Shown here in pieces: positions 864 to 39,189 of a DNA stretch of 64,000 nt (the stretch's first letter is position 1; every line of letters starts with the position of its first letter). Origin of the DNA: Deltaproteobacteria bacterium (GTDB lineage Bacteria > Myxococcota_A > Polyangia > Polyangiales > Houyiibacteriaceae); assembly GCA_034670305.1 (NCBI GenBank), contig JAXMNT010000017.1, positions 81,669 to 145,668 of the forward strand, in the 5' to 3' direction. Made by a program: the position numbers and the translations under genes. The notes below the pieces were generated by a model. The model did not search any database. It saw nothing but the letters and a program-made list of their open reading frames with translations, and was not told where the DNA came from.

Positions 864-3502
864 CCGACGCCAAGAAACGTCGACCGTCGCGCACCCCACG
901 CCCGGTGGATCCGCCGAGTCGACCCGCGCGTCGAAAGCTTCGGCCACGCAGTCGTCCGACCCGCACGTCGCTCATCGGTGAGTTTCTCGAACACCGCACC
1001 GTTCGCTTGCTCGTGGCTTCGCTCATCGTCGTCTCGCTGCTTCCTTATCCGGAGCTCGAACGACTGCTCCGCCCATGGCTCTTGGTCGCGTTCGGCGCCG
1101 AGGTGGTGCTTCGATTCACCCGGCTGGCAATCGAGAAGGCCAAGGAGCGGAGCGACTGGCTCTACCTCTGCATCGACGTGCTCGCGTGGACGAGCTTCTT
1201 GCCGCTCGAGCATCTGCTCGGCGTCGACGCGACCTGGGTCCGCGGGCTGCGCCTGGTCCGGCTGCTCGTGCTCATCCGGTTCACGCGGTACCTCGCGCAG
1301 GACGTCTGGCGCGTGCTCACTCGGCGCGAACAGCTCCAACAGCTCGGGCTCGTCACGACGTCCGTACTGGCGCTCTCGTTCTTCTCTGCGGTGGTGATGA
1401 ACCACATCCTGCCCGACGACCCGACCGTGCAGGGCAGCTTCTGGGATCAGATGTGGTGGAGCTTTCGCCAAGTCGAGAGCCCGGACAACCTCATCGCCCA
1501 CCTCGATGCGCATCCGCTCGTGGTCATCCTCTCGCTCGGTCTGACCATCACAGGCATCTTTGTCTTCTCGTACCTCATCGGTGTGGGCACGACCGTGGTG
1601 GAGCTCGTGCTGCGGGCCGAGCGTCGCCGGCCGGTGCCGTACCACGGGCACACGCTCGTCATCGGTCCGATGTACGAGAGCGAGCTGCTCGTCCGCGAGT
1701 TCGTGCGCATCCACGAGAAGAACCGCGCGCTGCGCCGCATCTCGCCGGCGGACCTGTGGCGCTGGCTCACCCACCGGCACCACCCGACCCCGCGGCGGCA
1801 CGCGCTCCCGCAGATGGCGCTGCTCGGGCCCGAGGTGGAGCCGCCGCCGTATCTCTACGAACCCGAGATGCGCTGGGTCGTCTACCGGCAGGGCGACGGC
1901 GTCGAGGCCGAAAGTCTCGACCTCGTGGGCGCGACGGACAGCAAACGCGCCATCTTGCTGGCGCCACCCTCCAATGCGCACGACCCGGACGCGATCACAC
2001 TCTCGCGGCTGAGCGCCATCCGCACCATCAACCCCGATGCGCATGTCTTCGTCGAGGTCACCCGCAGCGAGAACGAAGGCGTCGTGCGGGCGGTCGGCGG
2101 CGTCGGCACGTTTCCGCTCGATGCGAGCCGGCTCGTCGGACTGTTCCTTTGCCACCACTTGCTCGTGCCGGGCGTCGACCGACTCTTCGAAGAACTGCTC
2201 AGTGCGCGCGGCCACGAGATCTACACCCACCTCTACGTCGACAGCTGGGAGCACCGCGCCCTGGATCTTCGCGCGTCCAAGGAAGGAACTGGGGGGACCG
2301 TCTCGTTCCAGGCGCTCCAGCGCTTCGCTCAGGAGCGACACCACGTCACCCTGCTCGGTGTGTTCCTCGGCGATCGCATCGACCGCAAGCAACGCGATCT
2401 CATCCCGGTCGACCTGCTCGACGCCTGGGTCAACCCGCTCGCGGCAGCCGAGGCAGAGGGCGCGTCGGCCGCCGGTCGCATCCCGGTCGAGCGACTGCAG
2501 GGCATCTTCGGCATCGCCGACACCTACGTACCGCTGCGCGCGTCGGGCCGCGAGGTCCTCGAGTCCGACCTCGGTGCGCCCACTTCCGGTGACCTCCATG
2601 CTGCCAAAGCGGTGGTCGACTCGATCGATCGCGAAGTCGATCCACCGATGGAACGCATCGTGGTGGTTGGGTACGGACACGCGCTGCCCGCGTTGGTGGA
2701 TGCGCTCGCGCACTTCGTCCCCGGGGTGTCGGTACACGTCGTGCTGTGTGGCGACTCGCCCGACGCGGCGCGCTGGCTCCGCAAGTGCGGCATCCCCAAA
2801 GCCGGCGGCCGCTGCGCGATCGAGGGCGGCGGCACGCTTGCGATCGAACGCTGTGAGCGTGACGAACTCTCCGAGGTCGCGGCCGAGCGGGCTGCCGTCG
2901 CAGACGCGGCGGTCTTTCTTGCAGATGCGGGTGCGACCGACAGCGACGCGACCGTCTCGATGCGGGTGCTGCGGTTCGCCAACGCGCTGCGCCGCGGTTC
3001 GGAGAAGACCACGGAGATCGAACTCTGGCCCGACGACCGGGAGCGTGCGCAAGACCGCACTGCGATGCCGCTGCGACTGCTGGTCGAACTCGACTCCCGC
3101 CACCGCGGCGCGCAACTCGAAGGGCATCTCGGCGGGGGCATGTCCCAGGCGGAGACCGAGCTCGTCCTCGTCAGCACCGACCAGATCAAGAACTACTTCA
3201 TGGTGCACAGCGCGTTCGTGCCCGGCGTCACGTCGATCTACGAACGGCTGCTGGGAAGCCGCGGTCAGGAAATCGTGCGCCTGCCCGTCGCCTGGCTGCC
3301 CGACTCCCACGAGTCGTTCACGTTCGGGGGACTGCGCGCCGCGCTCGCCGGGCGTGGCTGCATCCCGATCGCGCTCTCTCTCGACGGCGAACTGCTTGTG
3401 AACCCACCGTGCGCCCGGCCGCTGAAACGCGCGGACCTCGAAGCCATCTACGCCGTCGCCGACATGGACTCCCTCGACGAGATCTTCCCCGCGCAGTCCT
3501 GA
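860..3502 (+). CDS. Ion channel: TM/voltage-sensor-like region, pore helix and tandem RCK-like domains (CASTOR/POLLUX-related)
   Basis: Hydrophobic helices, S4-like RGLRLVRLLVLIRFTR, pore-helix FWDQMWWSFRQVESPDN, RCK-like GHTLVIG / RIVVVGYG / DSDATVSMRVL / LLSARGHEIY / LLVNPP. Confidence 0.7.
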   Translation: MTDAKKRRPSRTPRPVDPPSRPARRKLRPRSRPTRTSLIGEFLEHRTVRLLVASLIVVSLLPYPELERLLRPWLLVAFGAEVVLRFTRLAIEKAKERSDWLYLCIDVLAWTSFLPLEHLLGVDATWVRGLRLVRLLVLIRFTRYLAQDVWRVLTRREQLQQLGLVTTSVLALSFFSAVVMNHILPDDPTVQGSFWDQMWWSFRQVESPDNLIAHLDAHPLVVILSLGLTITGIFVFSYLIGVGTTVVELVLRAERRRPVPYHGHTLVIGPMYESELLVREFVRIHEKNRALRRISPADLWRWLTHRHHPTPRRHALPQMALLGPEVEPPPYLYEPEMRWVVYRQGDGVEAESLDLVGATDSKRAILLAPPSNAHDPDAITLSRLSAIRTINPDAHVFVEVTRSENEGVVRAVGGVGTFPLDASRLVGLFLCHHLLVPGVDRLFEELLSARGHEIYTHLYVDSWEHRALDLRASKEGTGGTVSFQALQRFAQERHHVTLLGVFLGDRIDRKQRDLIPVDLLDAWVNPLAAAEAEGASAAGRIPVERLQGIFGIADTYVPLRASGREVLESDLGAPTSGDLHAAKAVVDSIDREVDPPMERIVVVGYGHALPALVDALAHFVPGVSVHVVLCGDSPDAARWLRKCGIPKAGGRCAIEGGGTLAIERCERDELSEVAAERAAVADAAVFLADAGATDSDATVSMRVLRFANALRRGSEKTTEIELWPDDRERAQDRTAMPLRLLVELDSRHRGAQLEGHLGGGMSQAETELVLVSTDQIKNYFMVHSAFVPGVTSIYERLLGSRGQEIVRLPVAWLPDSHESFTFGGLRAALAGRGCIPIALSLDGELLVNPPCARPLKRADLEAIYAVADMDSLDEIFPAQS

Positions 3503-32511: not shown

Positions 32512-32845
32512 AGTCGGCTTCACGGTCAGCCTCGGGATGGGCGTCGGCTTCGGCTTCGGCGTCGGCCTCGGCTTCGGGGTTTCGGCTTCGGGGTCGGCTT
32601 CGGTCTCGGCTTCGGCGTCGGCTTCGGCGTCGGCTTCGAGGTCGGCTTCGGCTTCGGGGTCGGCTTCGGGGTCGGCTTCGGGGTCGGCTTCGGGGTCGGC
32701 TTCGGGGTCGGCTTCGGGGTCGGCTTCGGGGTCGGCTTTGGGGTCGGCTTCGGGGTCGGCTTCGGGGTCGGCTTCGGGGTCGGCTTCGGCGTCGGACTCG
32801 GCTTCGGCCTCGGGATCGGCTTCGGCTTCGGCCTCGGACTTCTGA
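32512..32845. repeat. (GGGGTCGGCTTC)n hexamer/12-mer array
   Basis: Tandem repeat in the divergent gap. Confidence 0.93.
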
Positions 32846-32849
32846 GCCC

Positions 32850-32992
32850 GACTCACCCGTGATCACGCCTGACTCACCCATGATCACGCCTGACTCACCC
32901 ATGATCACGCCTGACTCACCCATGATCACGCCTGACTCACCCATGATCACGCCTGACTCACCCGTGATCACGCCTGACTCACCCGTGATCAC
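32850..32992. repeat. 7 x 21-bp direct repeat GACTCACCC(A/G)TGATCACGCCT
   Basis: Contiguous copies without spacers (last one partial), each with the palindrome TGATCA. Confidence 0.95.
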
Positions 32993-33011
32993 GGACGATT
33001 CCGGCCATTTC

Positions 33012-33060: not shown

Positions 33061-33510
33061 ATGAAGCTCAGCAACAAGAGTCGATACGGCGTGCGCGCCA
33101 TGTTCGACATCGCGTTTCACAACGACGGCAAACCCACCCAGGTGCGGACCATCGCCGAGCGTCAGGCCATCCCGCCCCGCTTCCTCGAGCAGATCTTCCA
33201 GGATTTGAAACGCGCTGGGCTCGTGACCAGCAAGCGCGGCCCACGCGGCGGGTACGCGCTCTCCCGAGACCCGGACACGATCCACATCGGCGATGTCATT
33301 CGGGCGCTCGAAGGCGAGATCCGCCTGACCGGCGACGAAGCCGCTGGGGGAGACGCGATGAGCCGCGCCATCACCGACGGGGTGTTGACCGAACTCGCGT
33401 CACGCATCGACCAAGTGCTCGACGAACTCAGCCTGCGCGACCTCTGCGAACGCGGCGAATCCGAAGGGGTTCGACGCCGCCCGCCGAGGCGCTACGTGTA
33501 CAGCATCTGA
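33061..33510 (+). CDS. Rrf2-family transcriptional regulator (CymR-like, no Fe-S Cys triad)
   Basis: MKLSNKSRYGVRAM, FLEQIFQDLKRAGLVTSKRGPRGGYAL, IRALEG. Confidence 0.92.
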   Translation: MKLSNKSRYGVRAMFDIAFHNDGKPTQVRTIAERQAIPPRFLEQIFQDLKRAGLVTSKRGPRGGYALSRDPDTIHIGDVIRALEGEIRLTGDEAAGGDAMSRAITDGVLTELASRIDQVLDELSLRDLCERGESEGVRRRPPRRYVYSI

Positions 33511-33512
33511 CC

Positions 33513-34544
33513 ATGACCCTCTCCGCCGACACCGAAGACACCGACCCTGGCTTGCCGAGGGACACCCTCCCCGATCCCGGCCCGCAAAAGCGCGCCCCCG
33601 TGGTCGAGAGCGTGCTCGATCTCATCGGACAGACCCCGCTCATTCAGCTGCGCCGTGTGGTCTCGGGCGCGCAGGTCTGGGCGAAGGCCGAACACCTGAA
33701 CCCCGGCGGTTCGGTGAAGGATCGGATCTGTCTCGCCATGATCGAGCGGGCCGAACGCGAGGGCATCCTGAAGCCCGGCATGACTGTGGTCGAACCCACC
33801 AGCGGCAACACCGGCATCGGCCTCGCGCTCGTCTGCGCCCGCAAGGGCTACAAGCTCGTGCTCACCATGCCGGCCAGCATGAGCCTCGAGCGGCGCGCTC
33901 TGCTCGAAGCCTACGGCGCCGAGATCGTGCTCACCGATCCGAAGCGCATCATGGAAGGTGCGCTCGAAGCGGCGGAGAAGATCAAAGGCGAGCGCGGCGC
34001 GTTCATGCCGCAGCAGTTCGACAACCCCTCGAACCCCGAGGCCCACGCCGAACACACCGCGCGCGAGATCATCGAAGCCTTCGAGGGCGAGACGCTTCAC
34101 ACCTTCGTCGCATCGGTCGGCACCGGCGGCACGATCAGCGGCGTCGGCCGCGCGCTCAAAGCGCACTGGCCCGACATCCGCATCGTCGCCGTCGAACCCG
34201 AGGCCAGCCCAGTGCTCAGCGGCGGCCAAGCCGGCCCTTCGAAGATCCAAGGCCTCAACGCTGGGTTCATTCCGAAGAACTTCGACCGCACCCAGGTGGA
34301 CGAGATCGTCCTCATCAGCGACGCCGACGCGTGGCGGATGAAAGAGCGGCTCGCGCGCGAAGAAGGCCTCCTCGTCGGGGTGAGCGCCGGCGCCAATGTG
34401 CACGTGTCCGCCGCCATCGCCGCCGAGCTGCCGCCCGAAGCGCACGTCGCCACCGTGTTGTGCGACACCGGCGAGCGCTACTTCAGTCTGGGCGTGCACT
34501 TCCAAGATCTCGACGACCCCAAGGGCGCGGACCCGGGCGCATGA
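33513..34544 (+). CDS. cysK: Cysteine synthase A (O-acetylserine sulfhydrylase)
   Basis: NPGGSVKDR, EPTSGNTG, SMSLERR, QQFDNPSN, GTGGT, KIQGL, DTGERY. Confidence 0.92.
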   Translation: MTLSADTEDTDPGLPRDTLPDPGPQKRAPVVESVLDLIGQTPLIQLRRVVSGAQVWAKAEHLNPGGSVKDRICLAMIERAEREGILKPGMTVVEPTSGNTGIGLALVCARKGYKLVLTMPASMSLERRALLEAYGAEIVLTDPKRIMEGALEAAEKIKGERGAFMPQQFDNPSNPEAHAEHTAREIIEAFEGETLHTFVASVGTGGTISGVGRALKAHWPDIRIVAVEPEASPVLSGGQAGPSKIQGLNAGFIPKNFDRTQVDEIVLISDADAWRMKERLAREEGLLVGVSAGANVHVSAAIAAELPPEAHVATVLCDTGERYFSLGVHFQDLDDPKGADPGA

Positions 34545-35248
34545 CGCGGACGTGGCTCATCGTCGGCGCGGGCGGCCTCGCGTGTGGTGCCGCCCGCGTG
34601 CTGCAGTCGGCTTTCCCGTCCGGCGCCTCCCGTCCTCGGTTCGTGGTCGTCGACGACGACGTCGTGGACGCCACCAACCTGCACCGGCAGACCCTCTACA
34701 CCGCGTCCGACATCGGTGCGGCCAAAGCCGTACTCGCTGCTCGCGCGCTCGGTGGTGAAGCCCGCCGGGAACGCTTTCTGCCGGACAACGCAGCCGCTCT
34801 GCTCGAAGGCGTCGATCTGGTGATCGAAGGCGCGGACAACTACGCGACGAAGTTTCTCGTCGCCGACGCCTGCGCGCTCGCCGGCATCGCGTGTGTGCAT
34901 GCGGGTGCGGTCGGATGGAACGGCTGGGTGTTCGGGAGCCGGGGTCACGCGGCCAACCAGCCGTGTCTGCGCTGCGTGTTCGAAGACGTGCCTTCGGGTC
35001 CGGTGCAGACCTGCGAGAACGCCGGCGTGGTCGGTCCGGTCGTCGGTGTCGTCGGCGCGGTGCAAGGCCGCGACGCCCTCTCGGTGCGCCGCGAACCGGC
35101 ACACCTCTGGAACTACCAGGGCCTGCGTGGCTCTCTTCGCCGCACCAGCGTACAACCCCGTCCCGACTGTCCTCACGCGCTCGGTTCCATCCGTGCGCTC
35201 GACCCCCACCGCTACGTCGCCCCCACCATTCACGACGCGTGCAACTAG
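34541..35248 (+). CDS. ThiF/MoeB-family adenylyltransferase (E1-like) lacking the N-terminal RYSRQ segment
   Basis: Starts at LIVGAGGLA; DDDVVDATNLHRQ, AKA, GADN, PCLRC, TCENAGVVGP, RPDCP. Confidence 0.88.
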   Translation: MTRTWLIVGAGGLACGAARVLQSAFPSGASRPRFVVVDDDVVDATNLHRQTLYTASDIGAAKAVLAARALGGEARRERFLPDNAAALLEGVDLVIEGADNYATKFLVADACALAGIACVHAGAVGWNGWVFGSRGHAANQPCLRCVFEDVPSGPVQTCENAGVVGPVVGVVGAVQGRDALSVRREPAHLWNYQGLRGSLRRTSVQPRPDCPHALGSIRALDPHRYVAPTIHDACN

Positions 35249-35274
35249 CCCGCGTCGAGCAACAGGAGACCCCC

Positions 35275-35550
35275 ATGGCCATCACACTTCGAATCCCCCC
35301 TGCCCTTCGTTCCCTCACCGGCGGCGACGCCGAGCTCGCGCTCGAAGGCGCCACGGTCGGCGCCCTCATCGACGCCGCCGAGAGCTCCTTCCCCGGCATC
35401 AAGGGACGCGTCTGCTCGGACGACGGAAAGGTGCTGCGTTTTGTGAACCTCTTCGTCGGCGAAGACGACATTCGCATGCTCGACGGACTCGAGACCCCGC
35501 TCAAAGAGGGCGACCAAGTCTCGATCATCCCGGCCATCGCAGGCGGCTGA
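35275..35550 (+). CDS. Ubiquitin-like sulfur carrier (MoaD/ThiS/CysO family)
   Basis: IPPALRSLTGG, RFVNLFVGEDDIR, C-terminal IIPAIAGG. Confidence 0.93.
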   Translation: MAITLRIPPALRSLTGGDAELALEGATVGALIDAAESSFPGIKGRVCSDDGKVLRFVNLFVGEDDIRMLDGLETPLKEGDQVSIIPAIAGG

Positions 35551-35554
35551 ACGG

Positions 35555-35824
35555 TTGACCCCTGAGGAGCGTCAGCGGTTCGTGCGACCCATGCTCGTTC
35601 GAGAGATCGGTGTGGCGGGACAAGAGCGGCTGCTCTCGGCCACCGTCCGGTTGTCCGGTCGGCCCGGCGACGAGACGGCCGCGCTCTACCTCGAGCGCGC
35701 TGGCGTGACGGTCGAAGTCGGAGCGCACATCCGCGTCGTGGAGTCGCCGGACGAGATCGTCGCCGGTGCGCTTCGCGCGGTCGAACAGATCAAAACCCTC
35801 CTCTCCCTCTCGGATCGATCATGA
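35555..35824 (+). CDS. Mini ThiF/MoeB N-terminal-like protein (no ATP-binding loop)
   Basis: TPEERQRFVRPMLVREIGVAGQERLLSATV, ALYLERAGV; TTG start; ATGA overlap with the next gene. Confidence 0.75.
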   Translation: MTPEERQRFVRPMLVREIGVAGQERLLSATVRLSGRPGDETAALYLERAGVTVEVGAHIRVVESPDEIVAGALRAVEQIKTLLSLSDRS

Positions 35825-36756
35825 GACACGGCAGACTCTCCAGCGTGTTCGACGCGGTCGGACAGACCCCGATGGTCCGGCTGCGCCGGATCGAACAAGA
35901 GACCCCCGGCGTCGAGATCTACCTGAAGCTCGAGTACATGAATCCGGGCGGTTCGGTGAAAGACCGACCGGCGCGGCAGATGATCCTCGACGCCGTCCAG
36001 GACGGCCGGTTCACCTCCGACAAGATCCTCATCGACTCGACGAGCGGCAACACCGGCGTGGCCTACAGCCTATACGGCGCCGCGCTCGGGTACCGCGTTG
36101 CGCTCGTGATGCCGAGCAACGTCAGCAAGCCCCGCAAAGACATCACCCAGGCCTACGGGACCGAGCTCATCTTCAGTGATCCGATGCTCGGCAGCGACGG
36201 AGCGATCGAGAAGGTGAAGGAGATCGTGGCCGCGGATCCGGAGCGCTACTTCTACCCGGACCAGTACGCGAACCCCTCGAACCCGCGGGCGCATTACCTG
36301 GGCACGGGCGCGGAGATCCTGGACCAGGTCGGTGACCGCATCACCCACTTCGCCAGCGCGCTCGGCACGAGCGGCACCATGATGGGCACCACCCGCCGGC
36401 TGCGCGAACACAGCCGGCCGATCCAGTGCATCGCGCTCGAACCCGCCGAAGCGCTGCACGGCCTCGAAGGCCTCAAACACATGGCCTCGTCCATCGTGCC
36501 GCCCATCTACGACGCCACCACGTTCGATGAGGTCATGCCGGTGAAGACCGACGACGGCTGGGACATGTCGGAGCGGCTTGCGGCCCAAGAAGGCATCTAC
36601 GTCGGCCACTCCACCGGGGCCAACGTCGCCGGCGCGGTCCAGGTCGCGAAGCGGCTCATCGCCCAGGGCGAAGAAGGCTGCGTGGTCACCATCGCGGCCG
36701 ACCGGGGCGACCGGTACTTCGCCCCCATGAAGTGGGAGAAACACTATGTCTGGTAG
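35821..36756 (+). CDS. cysM: Second PLP-dependent cysteine synthase (CysM-like, probably carrier-dependent)
   Basis: NPGGSVKDR, STSGNTG, DQYANPSN, GTSGT, HGLEGLKHM, DRGDRY; flanked by carrier and JAMM genes. Confidence 0.8.
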   Translation: MRHGRLSSVFDAVGQTPMVRLRRIEQETPGVEIYLKLEYMNPGGSVKDRPARQMILDAVQDGRFTSDKILIDSTSGNTGVAYSLYGAALGYRVALVMPSNVSKPRKDITQAYGTELIFSDPMLGSDGAIEKVKEIVAADPERYFYPDQYANPSNPRAHYLGTGAEILDQVGDRITHFASALGTSGTMMGTTRRLREHSRPIQCIALEPAEALHGLEGLKHMASSIVPPIYDATTFDEVMPVKTDDGWDMSERLAAQEGIYVGHSTGANVAGAVQVAKRLIAQGEEGCVVTIAADRGDRYFAPMKWEKHYVW

Positions 36757-36785
36757 CCCTGCCCTGCGGTTTTCGGAGCCCCCTC

Positions 36786-37301
36786 ATGCCCGCTGACCAC
36801 CCTCAGTTTCCAGGGCTGCCCTGGATCGCCGGCGACCTCGTGGTGTCGCGCGAAGTGATGGACGCGATCGAAGCCCACGCGCTTGCGGCCTATCCGAGCG
36901 AGTGCTGCGGCTTCGCGTTTGGTCCGGCGGACCAGCCGCTCGTGATCGACGAAGAGATCGAAGTCGAGAACGAAGCCGACAAGTACCACGCGATGGATCC
37001 CGAGCAGTTCCCGCGCACGTCCAAGACCTACTTTCGGCTGAACCCGATGAAGGCGATGCGGACGCTCGACGAAGCGTCGGCCAAGGGGCGTCCGCTCAAG
37101 GTCATCTACCACTCGCACTGCGACGCAGGCGCGTACTTCTCCGGAGAAGACAGCGCGACGTTCGCCCAGGGCGAGATGCTGATGTGGCCGTGCGCGTTCC
37201 TCGTCGTCAGCGTCGTCGACGGCGCGGTCAAGGAACACAAACTCTGGGTGCACGAAGTCGGCACCAACAACTTCGTCGAAGCTCCGATCCGCATAGGCTG
37301 A
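36786..37301 (+). CDS. JAMM/MPN+ (M67) metalloprotease, Mec-like
   Basis: YPSECCG ... IYHSHCDAGAYFSGED = E-x(n)-HxH-x7-S-x2-D. Confidence 0.9.
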   Translation: MPADHPQFPGLPWIAGDLVVSREVMDAIEAHALAAYPSECCGFAFGPADQPLVIDEEIEVENEADKYHAMDPEQFPRTSKTYFRLNPMKAMRTLDEASAKGRPLKVIYHSHCDAGAYFSGEDSATFAQGEMLMWPCAFLVVSVVDGAVKEHKLWVHEVGTNNFVEAPIRIG

Positions 37302-37545
37302 GCGAAGCGAAGCCCCCGTGCCCGTGCCCTTGCCCCTGCCCTCGCCCTCGGTTTGATTGAGGGCGGCGGAAACCAACTCCGAAGCCGACCCCGAAGCCTT
37401 GAGCGAAGCGAACCGGCCTTGCCCCTGCCCTTGCCCCTGCCCTTGCCCTCGGTTTGATTGAGAGCGGTGGCGGAAGTTGCTGCCGTCCAATGCGAAGCCG
37501 AGGCCGACGCTGACCCCCGAACCCGACTCCGGACCCCGAAGCCGA
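37299..37545. repeat. Two ~100-bp composite direct repeats (TGAGCGAAGCGAA-(GCCCYT)n-CGGTTTGATTGAG-CCGANN)
   Basis: Units begin at 37299 and 37400. Confidence 0.8.
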
Positions 37546-38273: not shown

Positions 38274-38380
38274 ACCGAAGCCGAAGCCGATCCCCGAAAC
38301 GGATCCCGAAGCCGAAGCGGAAGCCGATCCCGAAGCCGATCCCAAAGCCGATCCCGTGAGCCGGGCGGACCCGAAGCCGG
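38274..38380. repeat. CCGANN hexamer array
   Basis: Tandem hexamers in a divergent gap. Confidence 0.85.
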
Positions 38381-39045: not shown

Positions 39046-39120
39046 ATCGGCTTCGGGGTCGGCTTCGGCTTTCGGCGTCGGCTTCGGCTTCGGCGTCGGC
39101 TCCGGGGTCGGCTTCGGTCT
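39046..39120. repeat. TCGGNN hexamer array
   Basis: Tandem hexamers. Confidence 0.85.
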
Positions 39121-39189
39121 TCAACCACCCCAAACGCAGAAAATCGCCCTCACCGGATGGCGAGGACGACCTTCGAAGTACCGGAAGAA

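Follow-up and report, generated by a model that had tools for sequence, protein, structure and literature searches.

A seven-gene operon with two partial ThiF genes

The stretch of DNA analysed here (the window: 64,000 nucleotides of contig JAXMNT010000017.1, assembly GCA_034670305.1, from a deltaproteobacterium of the order Polyangiales) contains seven closely packed genes on the plus strand (33061-37301). In this order, they encode an Rrf2-family regulator, CysK, a ThiF/MoeB-type adenylyltransferase that we call ThiF-ΔN, a CysO-like sulfur carrier, an 89-residue protein, CysM and a JAB protease (Table 1). ThiF-ΔN and the 89-residue protein, hereafter the mini-protein, probably form the two kinds of subunit of an asymmetric enzyme related to E1 (ubiquitin-activating enzyme) that would activate the carrier.

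The first-pass annotation of the window had described the ThiF gene as starting at its Gly loop, with the adenylation motifs kept and the N-terminal segment gone, and profile searches bear this out. Residues 5-211 of ThiF-ΔN correspond to positions 23-237 of the 238 in PF00899 (E 1e-39, Pfam), and in the MoeB model NF004281 only positions 36-213 of 250 are covered (NCBIfam). Because these matches begin at positions 23 and 36, the N-terminal segment is absent from ThiF-ΔN. In phmmer alignments (E 1e-17 to 1e-19), its residue 5/6 falls on residues 32-34 of Escherichia coli ThiF and residue 35 of MoeB. The start of the gene is fixed by the overlap of its ATG with the cysK stop codon (ATGA), and the N-terminal RYxRQ arginine-finger helices (the arm) are missing from this chain. 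Homologues with an intact N-terminus, an outcome that the first-pass annotation had named as adverse to its proposal, were not seen: ThiF begins a few residues before the Gly loop in all 12 loci that were read residue by residue, and the arm profile matched none of the 41 best ThiF representatives (E <= 1e-30) in a library of 1.84 billion proteins.

ThiF-ΔN retains GAGGLA, DDDVVDATNLHRQ, the NLHRQ arginine, K62, D99-N100, CLRC and TCENAGV, and its Gly loop and ATP-site residues align to the site residues of Uba4 and MoeB, as expected of an adenylyltransferase. No variation is seen at G9, G11, G12, R49, K62, D99 and N100 among 11 orthologues, and these positions are mostly invariant across a set of 99 sequences. 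The first CxxC of the zinc site is present (C142, C145); the second zinc motif has the sequence CPHA and so contains one Cys and one His. Most close orthologues share this second motif with the window, in the form D-C-P-H-A, and a conserved ...ERY... tail follows it (35160-35248 in the window). At 235 amino acids (aa), the protein has no insertion in the crossover region and hence lacks the catalytic-cysteine domain of heteromeric E1s. No rhodanese domain was detected in it by Pfam and NCBIfam scans.

The segment missing from ThiF-ΔN is found in the mini-protein, which, as the first-pass annotation had also claimed, has no Gly loop of its own. Pfam has no match to this 89-aa open reading frame (ORF). 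In NCBIfam it matches the first ~50 positions of eight MoeB/ThiF/MoeZ models, at their N-termini only (best match, residues 2-52 to NF006444, E 1.4e-7; residues 2-51 also to NF004281 positions 6-56). A profile of the mini-protein family aligned to residues 3-57 of both E. coli ThiF and E. coli MoeB, with the conserved arginine, Arg11, on ThiF R11 and MoeB R14. HHalign placed family residues 1-54 onto residues 1-57 of full-length MoeB-like proteins with 98.4% probability (E 1e-14), a sequence similarity far beyond chance. These 54 residues span two N-terminal helices, strand 1, a degenerate loop, the next helix and the start of strand 2. Given their alignment ranges on ThiF and MoeB, the mini-protein and ThiF-ΔN overlap by one degenerate β1-helix unit and are otherwise complementary.

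A small-protein profile search yielded 734 matches at E <= 1e-3 among 8000 scored candidates, so a name and a likely role can be proposed for a family of at least 734 small proteins, mostly unnamed or 'hypothetical' in their sources. The 120 matches listed are 89-178 aa long, and 118 of them have no Pfam domain; where the source gives a name it is mostly 'hypothetical protein', and the taxa are Myxococcota, Polyangiales and similar. Arg11 is kept in 117 of 118 aligned members; Q23, L26, Y45, G50 and A75 do not vary at all among the 118, and no member has a Gly loop at the aligned position; the nucleotide-binding Rossmann core is absent. Beyond the arm, conserved residues are found in the helix behind the lost Gly loop (Y45, L46, R48, A49, G50) and in a long C-terminal helix (G71, A72, A75, V76, E77, K80). 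The C-terminal block resembles the long helix that comes after the crossover loop in MoeB-like proteins (reference positions 194-216); in 15 of 32 proteins the score is above all 320 shuffles. Assignment of the same block to MoeB helix α4, a pairing that HHalign had also given, was rejected, as its scores (<= 4.2 bits) lay inside the shuffled range.

In the E1-like dimer of TcdA, the interface consists of helix α1, helix α3 (after the P-loop), helix α4 and a long helix in common with MoeB and ThiF, and these helices are among the elements most conserved with MoeB and ThiF (PMC4405576). By analogy with such homologue structures, the mini-protein appears to retain, and to concentrate its invariant residues in, the arm and the interface-type helices. 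An ESM Atlas model of protein P0006, with a predicted local distance difference test score (pLDDT) of 0.67, places residues 1-103 on ThiF-family models with a template modelling (TM) score of 0.86 by query and is taken as a lead only.

Co-occurrence, a size series and natural fusions

A truncated-ThiF orthologue (E <= 1e-30) was identified in 32 of 41 related genomes, and a mini-type ORF lies just downstream of it in all 32, of which 23 were recognized by single-sequence search and nine more by the family profile. In a phylum-wide sample the ThiF clade is present in 41 of 301 genomes, namely in the window's own order (16/17, 22/24 and 1/2 genomes in three families) and in a single genome from a different family of the class; it was not found in the remaining genomes searched of that sample. 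A search of genome contigs with a narrow alignment brought up almost exclusively MoeB/MoeZ N-termini, from many phyla, and so gave no indication of range. The mini-ORF lies beside the truncated ThiF in 33 of the 34 further loci that the sample provided. The survey of myxobacterial genomes that the first-pass annotation had proposed has thus been run, and the mini-gene adjoins the truncated ThiF in 65 of 66 genomes from several families. Among nine relatives without ThiF, no stand-alone mini-gene was detected, bar one locus cut by a contig end.

The ratio of nonsynonymous to synonymous substitution rates (dN/dS) could be read only in the closest genome pair, as dS is ~1 or more, or depressed by codon bias, in more distant pairs. 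In that pair the mini-gene has a dN/dS of 0.22 (87 codons, dS 0.52), compared with 0.12 in ThiF and 0.09 in the carrier gene. As judged from these substitutions, the mini-ORF is under purifying selection. The first-pass annotation had left room for an unconserved or neutrally evolving mini-ORF; its synteny and its dN/dS speak for the opposite.

Several loci in this set depart from the common arrangement. The mini-gene directly follows ThiF, with no carrier between, in genomes G049 and G103. Contig G016:C46 (L015 / L030, ~L030:3387-5204) has a reduced Rrf2 - ThiF-ΔN - mini - JAB locus without carrier, CysK and CysM. An apparent CysO-mini fusion in G037, G020 and G039 was rejected, as it consists of overlapping open frames plus one CysO frameshift. 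Through either a frameshift or an assembly error, two frames are needed to cover the carrier gene at L023 (G037:C4, ~2919-3189 on the minus strand); its neighbours are intact.

With the carrier as a probe, a CysO orthologue was identified in 40 of 81 genomes of the class, and 32 of those loci were read. An ORF that matches the mini profile lies 3' of the carrier in 19 of the 32; we refer to this ORF in the sister families as ThiF2 and to the ThiF upstream of it as ThiF1. The seven ThiF2 ORFs that were read residue by residue are 229, 226, 223, 207, 159, 149 and 147 aa long. The RYxRQ arm is present in every one of them, with R8 and R11 invariant, and the Gly loop is ruined in each; all match the Pfam ThiF family, six of them above the gathering score. 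The forms of 207-226 aa lack the NLxRQ...K segment and keep the C-terminal half with its CxxC; the forms of 147-159 aa consist of only the arm, the next helix and the long helix, to which helix α4 and strand 3 are added in two cases. HHalign relates the mini family to ThiF2 with 99.1% probability (E 1.2e-18). ThiF1 is N-truncated in all six ThiF2 loci where it could be seen. The seven ThiF2/ThiF1 pairs of the sister families, like the mini-protein and ThiF-ΔN, combine one dead with one intact site. Because of this series in the sister families, the 89-aa mini-protein can be placed as the shortest member in a series of nested deletions of a dead ThiF paralogue that occupies a fixed operon slot.

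The remaining 13 of the 32 CysO loci comprise eight with a truncated ThiF alone, two without any E1, one with a full-length ThiF upstream and two with a full-length MoeB-like gene 3' of the carrier. In the last two, L182 (G342:C501) and L184 (G350:C5), the gene that occupies the ThiF2/mini slot is 53-57% identical to ordinary MoeB and may represent the undegraded state. A separate feature, seen in several sister families, is an additional gene for a 419-aa pyridoxal phosphate (PLP)-dependent enzyme (PALP) between the truncated ThiF and the carrier, at L154:2215-3474 (Pfam, L154 copy only); a gap of ~1.3 kb at the same place is also present in L155, L156, L163, L165, L166, L168-L170, L179 and L180.

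Among 150 listed ThiF representatives, we identified five natural fusions of the two proteins. P0175 and P0195 have the order mini-ThiF-ΔN, P0196 and P0206 the order ThiF-ΔN-mini, and P0205 has ~100 aa between ThiF-ΔN and mini. Another metagenome contig carries a copy, 82% identical to P0206, as a single unbroken frame of 367 codons, which shows that this fusion is no gene-calling artefact. No close fused relatives of P0195 were found in a homologue search, the other listed matches covering <= 68% of the query.

Structures were predicted for two fusions of opposite order. The AlphaFold2 model of P0196 has a mean pLDDT of 84.6 and a predicted TM score (pTM) of 0.86, with the mini helices at ~86-93 and the variable linker at < 50; its alignment had 130 rows, in which the mini family was placed correctly and of which 12 covered the ThiF part. 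The ThiF part superposes on ThiF/MoeB structures over ~220 residues (Z 28-29, VIA), and both parts together (model residues 3-388) superpose on single-chain E1s over 319-322 residues for UBA7 and 315-322 for UBA1, with a root mean square deviation of 3.5-3.7. The weaker model of P0195 (residues 9-386) superposes on 316-317 residues of the bacterial E1 BilD (chain 4-495, Z 24.6-24.9) and on 328-338 residues of UBA1/UBA6/UBA7; its alignment to BilD starts at residue 4, near BilD Arg9. According to these predictions, the two fusions, despite their opposite order, would adopt the geometry of an inactive/active adenylation-domain pair.

The rest of the operon fits a CysO-CysM-Mec+ cluster: a GG-ending ThiS/MoaD-fold carrier lies beside a CysM-type PLP enzyme and a JAMM protease, and the gene order around these three is kept in relatives. 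The carrier scores 54 bits against SAMP1 and 43.6 bits against MoaD_arch in NCBIfam, each under its cut-off. CysM is 64-82% identical in related loci. The start position of JAB is uncertain, as its orthologues align only from query residue ~23-31 on. The mini-gene starts with TTG 4 nt past the carrier stop, and the CysM start overlaps the mini-gene stop (ATGA). No E2-like gene was detected in the seven-gene cluster by Pfam and NCBIfam scans. The genome encodes five ThiF-family genes: ThiF-ΔN, a MoeZ-type full-length ThiF gene on the same contig (G000:C17:51288-52007, within an open frame of 404 codons, ~30 kb upstream of where the window starts) and three others elsewhere in the genome. ThiF-ΔN is the sole one of the five with a match that begins at profile position 22. 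The operon and its neighbours are flanked by GC-rich intergenic tandem repeats (32540-32837, 32846-32993, 37417-37449, 38275-38356 and 39047-39122), which include 24 copies of a 12-nt unit (GGCGTCGGCTTC), seven copies of a 21-nt unit with 97% identity and shorter arrays of related units; they give rise to long spurious ORFs with Pro/Glu/Ala/Asp repeats.

Table 1. Genes of the carrier operon, their location in the window and the basis of each assignment
Gene product	Position	Strand	Basis
Rrf2-family regulator, first in conserved cluster	33061..33510	+	Pfam Rrf2 E 8.4e-37; 5' of CysK in related loci
CysK-type cysteine synthase (PLP enzyme)	33513..34544	+	NCBIfam TIGR01139 cysK 383.5 bits vs cut-off 350.95; Pfam PALP
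ThiF-ΔN, active-type ThiF/MoeB adenylyltransferase without N-terminal arginine-finger helices	34541..35248	+	PF00899 positions 23-237/238
CysO-like ThiS/MoaD-fold sulfur carrier, C-terminus ...IAGG	35275..35550	+	Pfam ThiS E 4.2e-13
Candidate mini-subunit, 89 aa	35555..35824	+	NCBIfam MoeB/ThiF/MoeZ N-termini matched; Pfam none
CysM-type cysteine synthase	35821..36756	+	TIGR01138 cysM is top NCBIfam match, 328.9 bits, under cut-off 394.2
JAB/JAMM (Mec+-like) metalloprotease	36732..37301	+	Pfam Prok-JAB E 2.8e-18

A candidate single-site E1 and its alternatives

With a probability of roughly 0.68, we favour the view that the operon encodes a heteromeric, single-site E1-like enzyme for the CysO-type carrier, in which ThiF-ΔN pairs with the shrunken relic of a dead protomer, the mini-protein. 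The first-pass annotation had proposed a bacterial asymmetric E1 with a minimal arginine-finger subunit, and the ThiF2 series, the fusions in both orders and the two fusion models lend support to that idea. What the data show directly is that the two sequences are complementary, conserved and strictly co-occurring, that the partner forms a size series, that natural fusions exist, and that two of these are predicted to have the pair geometry. For the pair encoded in the window, we infer that the two proteins bind each other, that they do so in 1:1 stoichiometry, that the arginine contacts ATP, and, from gene content, what chemistry the pathway performs.

ThiF-ΔN would be the sole ATP-binding subunit and would adenylate the C-terminal glycine of the carrier. 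The mini-protein would dock on the dimer face of ThiF-ΔN in the place of the second protomer, via interface helices of the ThiF/MoeB type, and its N-terminal helices with Arg11 would lie over the single ATP site. The homologous residues ThiF R11 and MoeB R14 are trans arginine fingers (PMC13139853, PMC7527816), and Uba4 R18 likewise lies over the nucleotide from the neighbouring subunit (PMC7527816). By analogy with the mycobacterial CysO pathway, the activated carrier would be thiocarboxylated and used by CysM, and the JAB protease may act on the carrier or its adduct. The proposed history starts with a duplication, after which one ATP site would have died, the active copy would have lost its useless arm, and the dead copy would have been deleted stepwise, from 229 to 89 residues. 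Once the site of one protomer was dead, the arm of the active protomer would have pointed at nothing and could be lost, and this would account for the exact complementarity of the two proteins.

Several observations weigh against this scheme. The arginine finger of MoeB and ThiF has been reported as non-essential (PMC13139853). A truncated ThiF without a second gene is present in nine genomes (eight loci of one family and G256), and profile searches of five of the nine matched only a MoeZ-type frame of ~400-450 aa; the mini partner must therefore be dispensable or replaceable there. Orthologue G016 has Gln for Arg11, the only such case among the 118. The mini-protein of the window is the shortest member of its family (89 aa vs a median of 123.5) and deviates from the consensus at some positions, such as P12 vs H/Q in 117 of 118. 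The P0195 model is weak (pLDDT 68.5, pTM 0.66, only two rows over the ThiF part). Both models represent fusion proteins from other organisms and were predicted from unpaired alignments by a program that has seen E1 structures.

Among the alternatives, a symmetric split enzyme survives best, unlikely as we consider it. ThiF-ΔN would then form a homodimer with both sites active, two mini-proteins would supply the arms (α2β2), and the other mini helices would serve as a folding scaffold. All solved sulfur-carrier E1s of the ThiF/MoeB/Uba4 type are two-site homodimers according to PMC7527816 and PMC10557695; ThiF-ΔN retains interface-type helices of its own, and the lineages that have only ThiF-ΔN suggest that it can dimerize with itself. 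However, the larger ThiF2 proteins of the sister families are whole ThiF folds with dead sites, which would fill the place of a protomer, and the strongest conservation in the mini-protein is seen in the interface-type helices, not in the arm alone. Both fusion models, moreover, superpose on inactive/active domain pairs over > 315 residues.

Still less probable is that the mini-protein has no part in completing the ATP site and is instead a conserved accessory factor. It would then either link the E1 to CysM or to a sulfur donor, as an adaptor, or cap the dimer face of ThiF, as a regulator or decoy. As ThiF-ΔN lacks a rhodanese domain, it needs some partner for sulfur delivery, but the fusion of mini to ThiF in both orders argues for a constitutive subunit. 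Although the finger is reported to be dispensable in MoeB and ThiF (PMC13139853) and partner-less lineages exist, the most conserved feature of the mini-protein is the finger Arg (117/118) inside a canonical RYxRQ/H...G..GQ..L arm, and this arm is absent from exactly the co-occurring ThiF. A functionless, decaying fragment of a duplicated ThiF is very improbable: the mini-protein is an internally deleted, catalytically dead derivative that evolves faster than its neighbours and has been lost in some lineages, yet its frame is open at the same position in 65 of 66 genomes of several families, dN/dS is 0.22, all 118 sequences agree at five positions, the gene's start directly adjoins or overlaps the stops of neighbouring genes, and a fusion is kept at 82% identity.

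A wider proposal, towards which we lean only slightly, is that this class of Myxococcota independently repeated, in a sulfur-carrier system, the step that led to eukaryotic E1s. A ThiF/MoeB homodimer would have been duplicated into an active and an inactive protomer, and the inactive one would then have been cut to an 89-157-aa module of interface and arginine arm, the smallest equivalent of an inactive domain so far. In that event, there would be living intermediates of 229, 207-226 and 147-159 aa, along with lineages from which the dead partner has gone entirely, and one could read from the series the smallest portion of a dead protomer that is still required at an E1 active site.

Comparison with known sulfur-carrier and E1 systems

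The MoeB-MoaD and ThiF-ThiS systems of E. coli, whose activating enzymes are homodimers (PDB 1JW9, 1ZUD), resemble ThiF-ΔN in fold and in ATP-site residues, and their partner, as here, is a GG-ending carrier with the ThiS/MoaD fold. In MoeB and ThiF the arginine finger comes from outside the catalytic chain, as is proposed here (PMC13139853). Unlike in E. coli, the arm and the catalytic core are found here on two gene products, and the arm-bearing product has no nucleotide site; consequently, at most one kind of subunit can be active.

Mycobacterium tuberculosis has a CysO-CysM-Mec+ cysteine pathway with MoeZ as the activator. The gene set is the same as here, with a ThiS-like carrier, a CysM-type PLP enzyme and a JAMM protease clustered. 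In contrast to MoeZ, the activator in the present operon appears to be a dedicated, rhodanese-less, N-truncated ThiF together with the mini-subunit, while a MoeZ-type protein is encoded elsewhere on the contig. The operon class that combines ThiS/MoaD, an E1, JAB and cysteine synthase is listed in a 2006 survey of prokaryotic ubiquitin-related operons, the available part of which describes no two-subunit sulfur-carrier E1 (PMC1779556). None was found in a full-text literature search either; the survey of the E1-like superfamily by Burroughs et al. (2009), which lies outside that search, may bear on novelty.

In eukaryotic E1s (SAE1-UBA2, NAE1(APPBP1)-UBA3 and UBA1/UBA6/UBA7), the active adenylation domain has an inactive partner domain, from which it receives the arginine finger, and we propose the same division of roles for the mini-protein and ThiF-ΔN. 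Unlike these enzymes, the system described here has no catalytic-cysteine domain, ubiquitin-fold domain or E2, its substrate would be a sulfur carrier, and the inactive partner measures 89-157 aa vs > 200 in eukaryotic E1s.

Of the known systems, BilD and the yeast Tcd1-Tcd2 pair come closest to the proposed enzyme. BilD, the E1 of an anti-phage ubiquitination system (PDB 8TYZ/8TZ0), is a bacterial pseudo-dimer in which the inactive domain supplies Arg9, and according to the same 2023 structural paper every other known bacterial E1-like protein is a homodimer (PMC10557695). Unlike the two-gene pair of the present operon, BilD is a single polypeptide that contains a mobile Cys domain as well as an inactive domain of full size and acts together with an E2. 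Tcd1-Tcd2, the ct6A dehydratase, is an E1-like heterodimer in which one subunit mainly gives the arginine finger to the active site of the other (PMC13139853). Both of its subunits have the full-size ThiF fold and act on tRNA; unlike here, neither has been reduced to a mini-subunit.

The route from homodimeric MoeB/ThiF to asymmetric, single-site E1s is a standing question in E1 evolution. The locus in the window and its relatives provide a graded natural series within one biosynthetic operon, in which the partner is a full inactive paralogue, a half-size protein, a protein of 89 aa or none, or is fused to ThiF in both orders. Such a series makes it possible to test, with small soluble proteins, what the second protomer contributes (the arginine finger, the interface or both), why loss of the active subunit's own arm is tolerated, and how far the pseudo-enzyme partner of an E1 can shrink.

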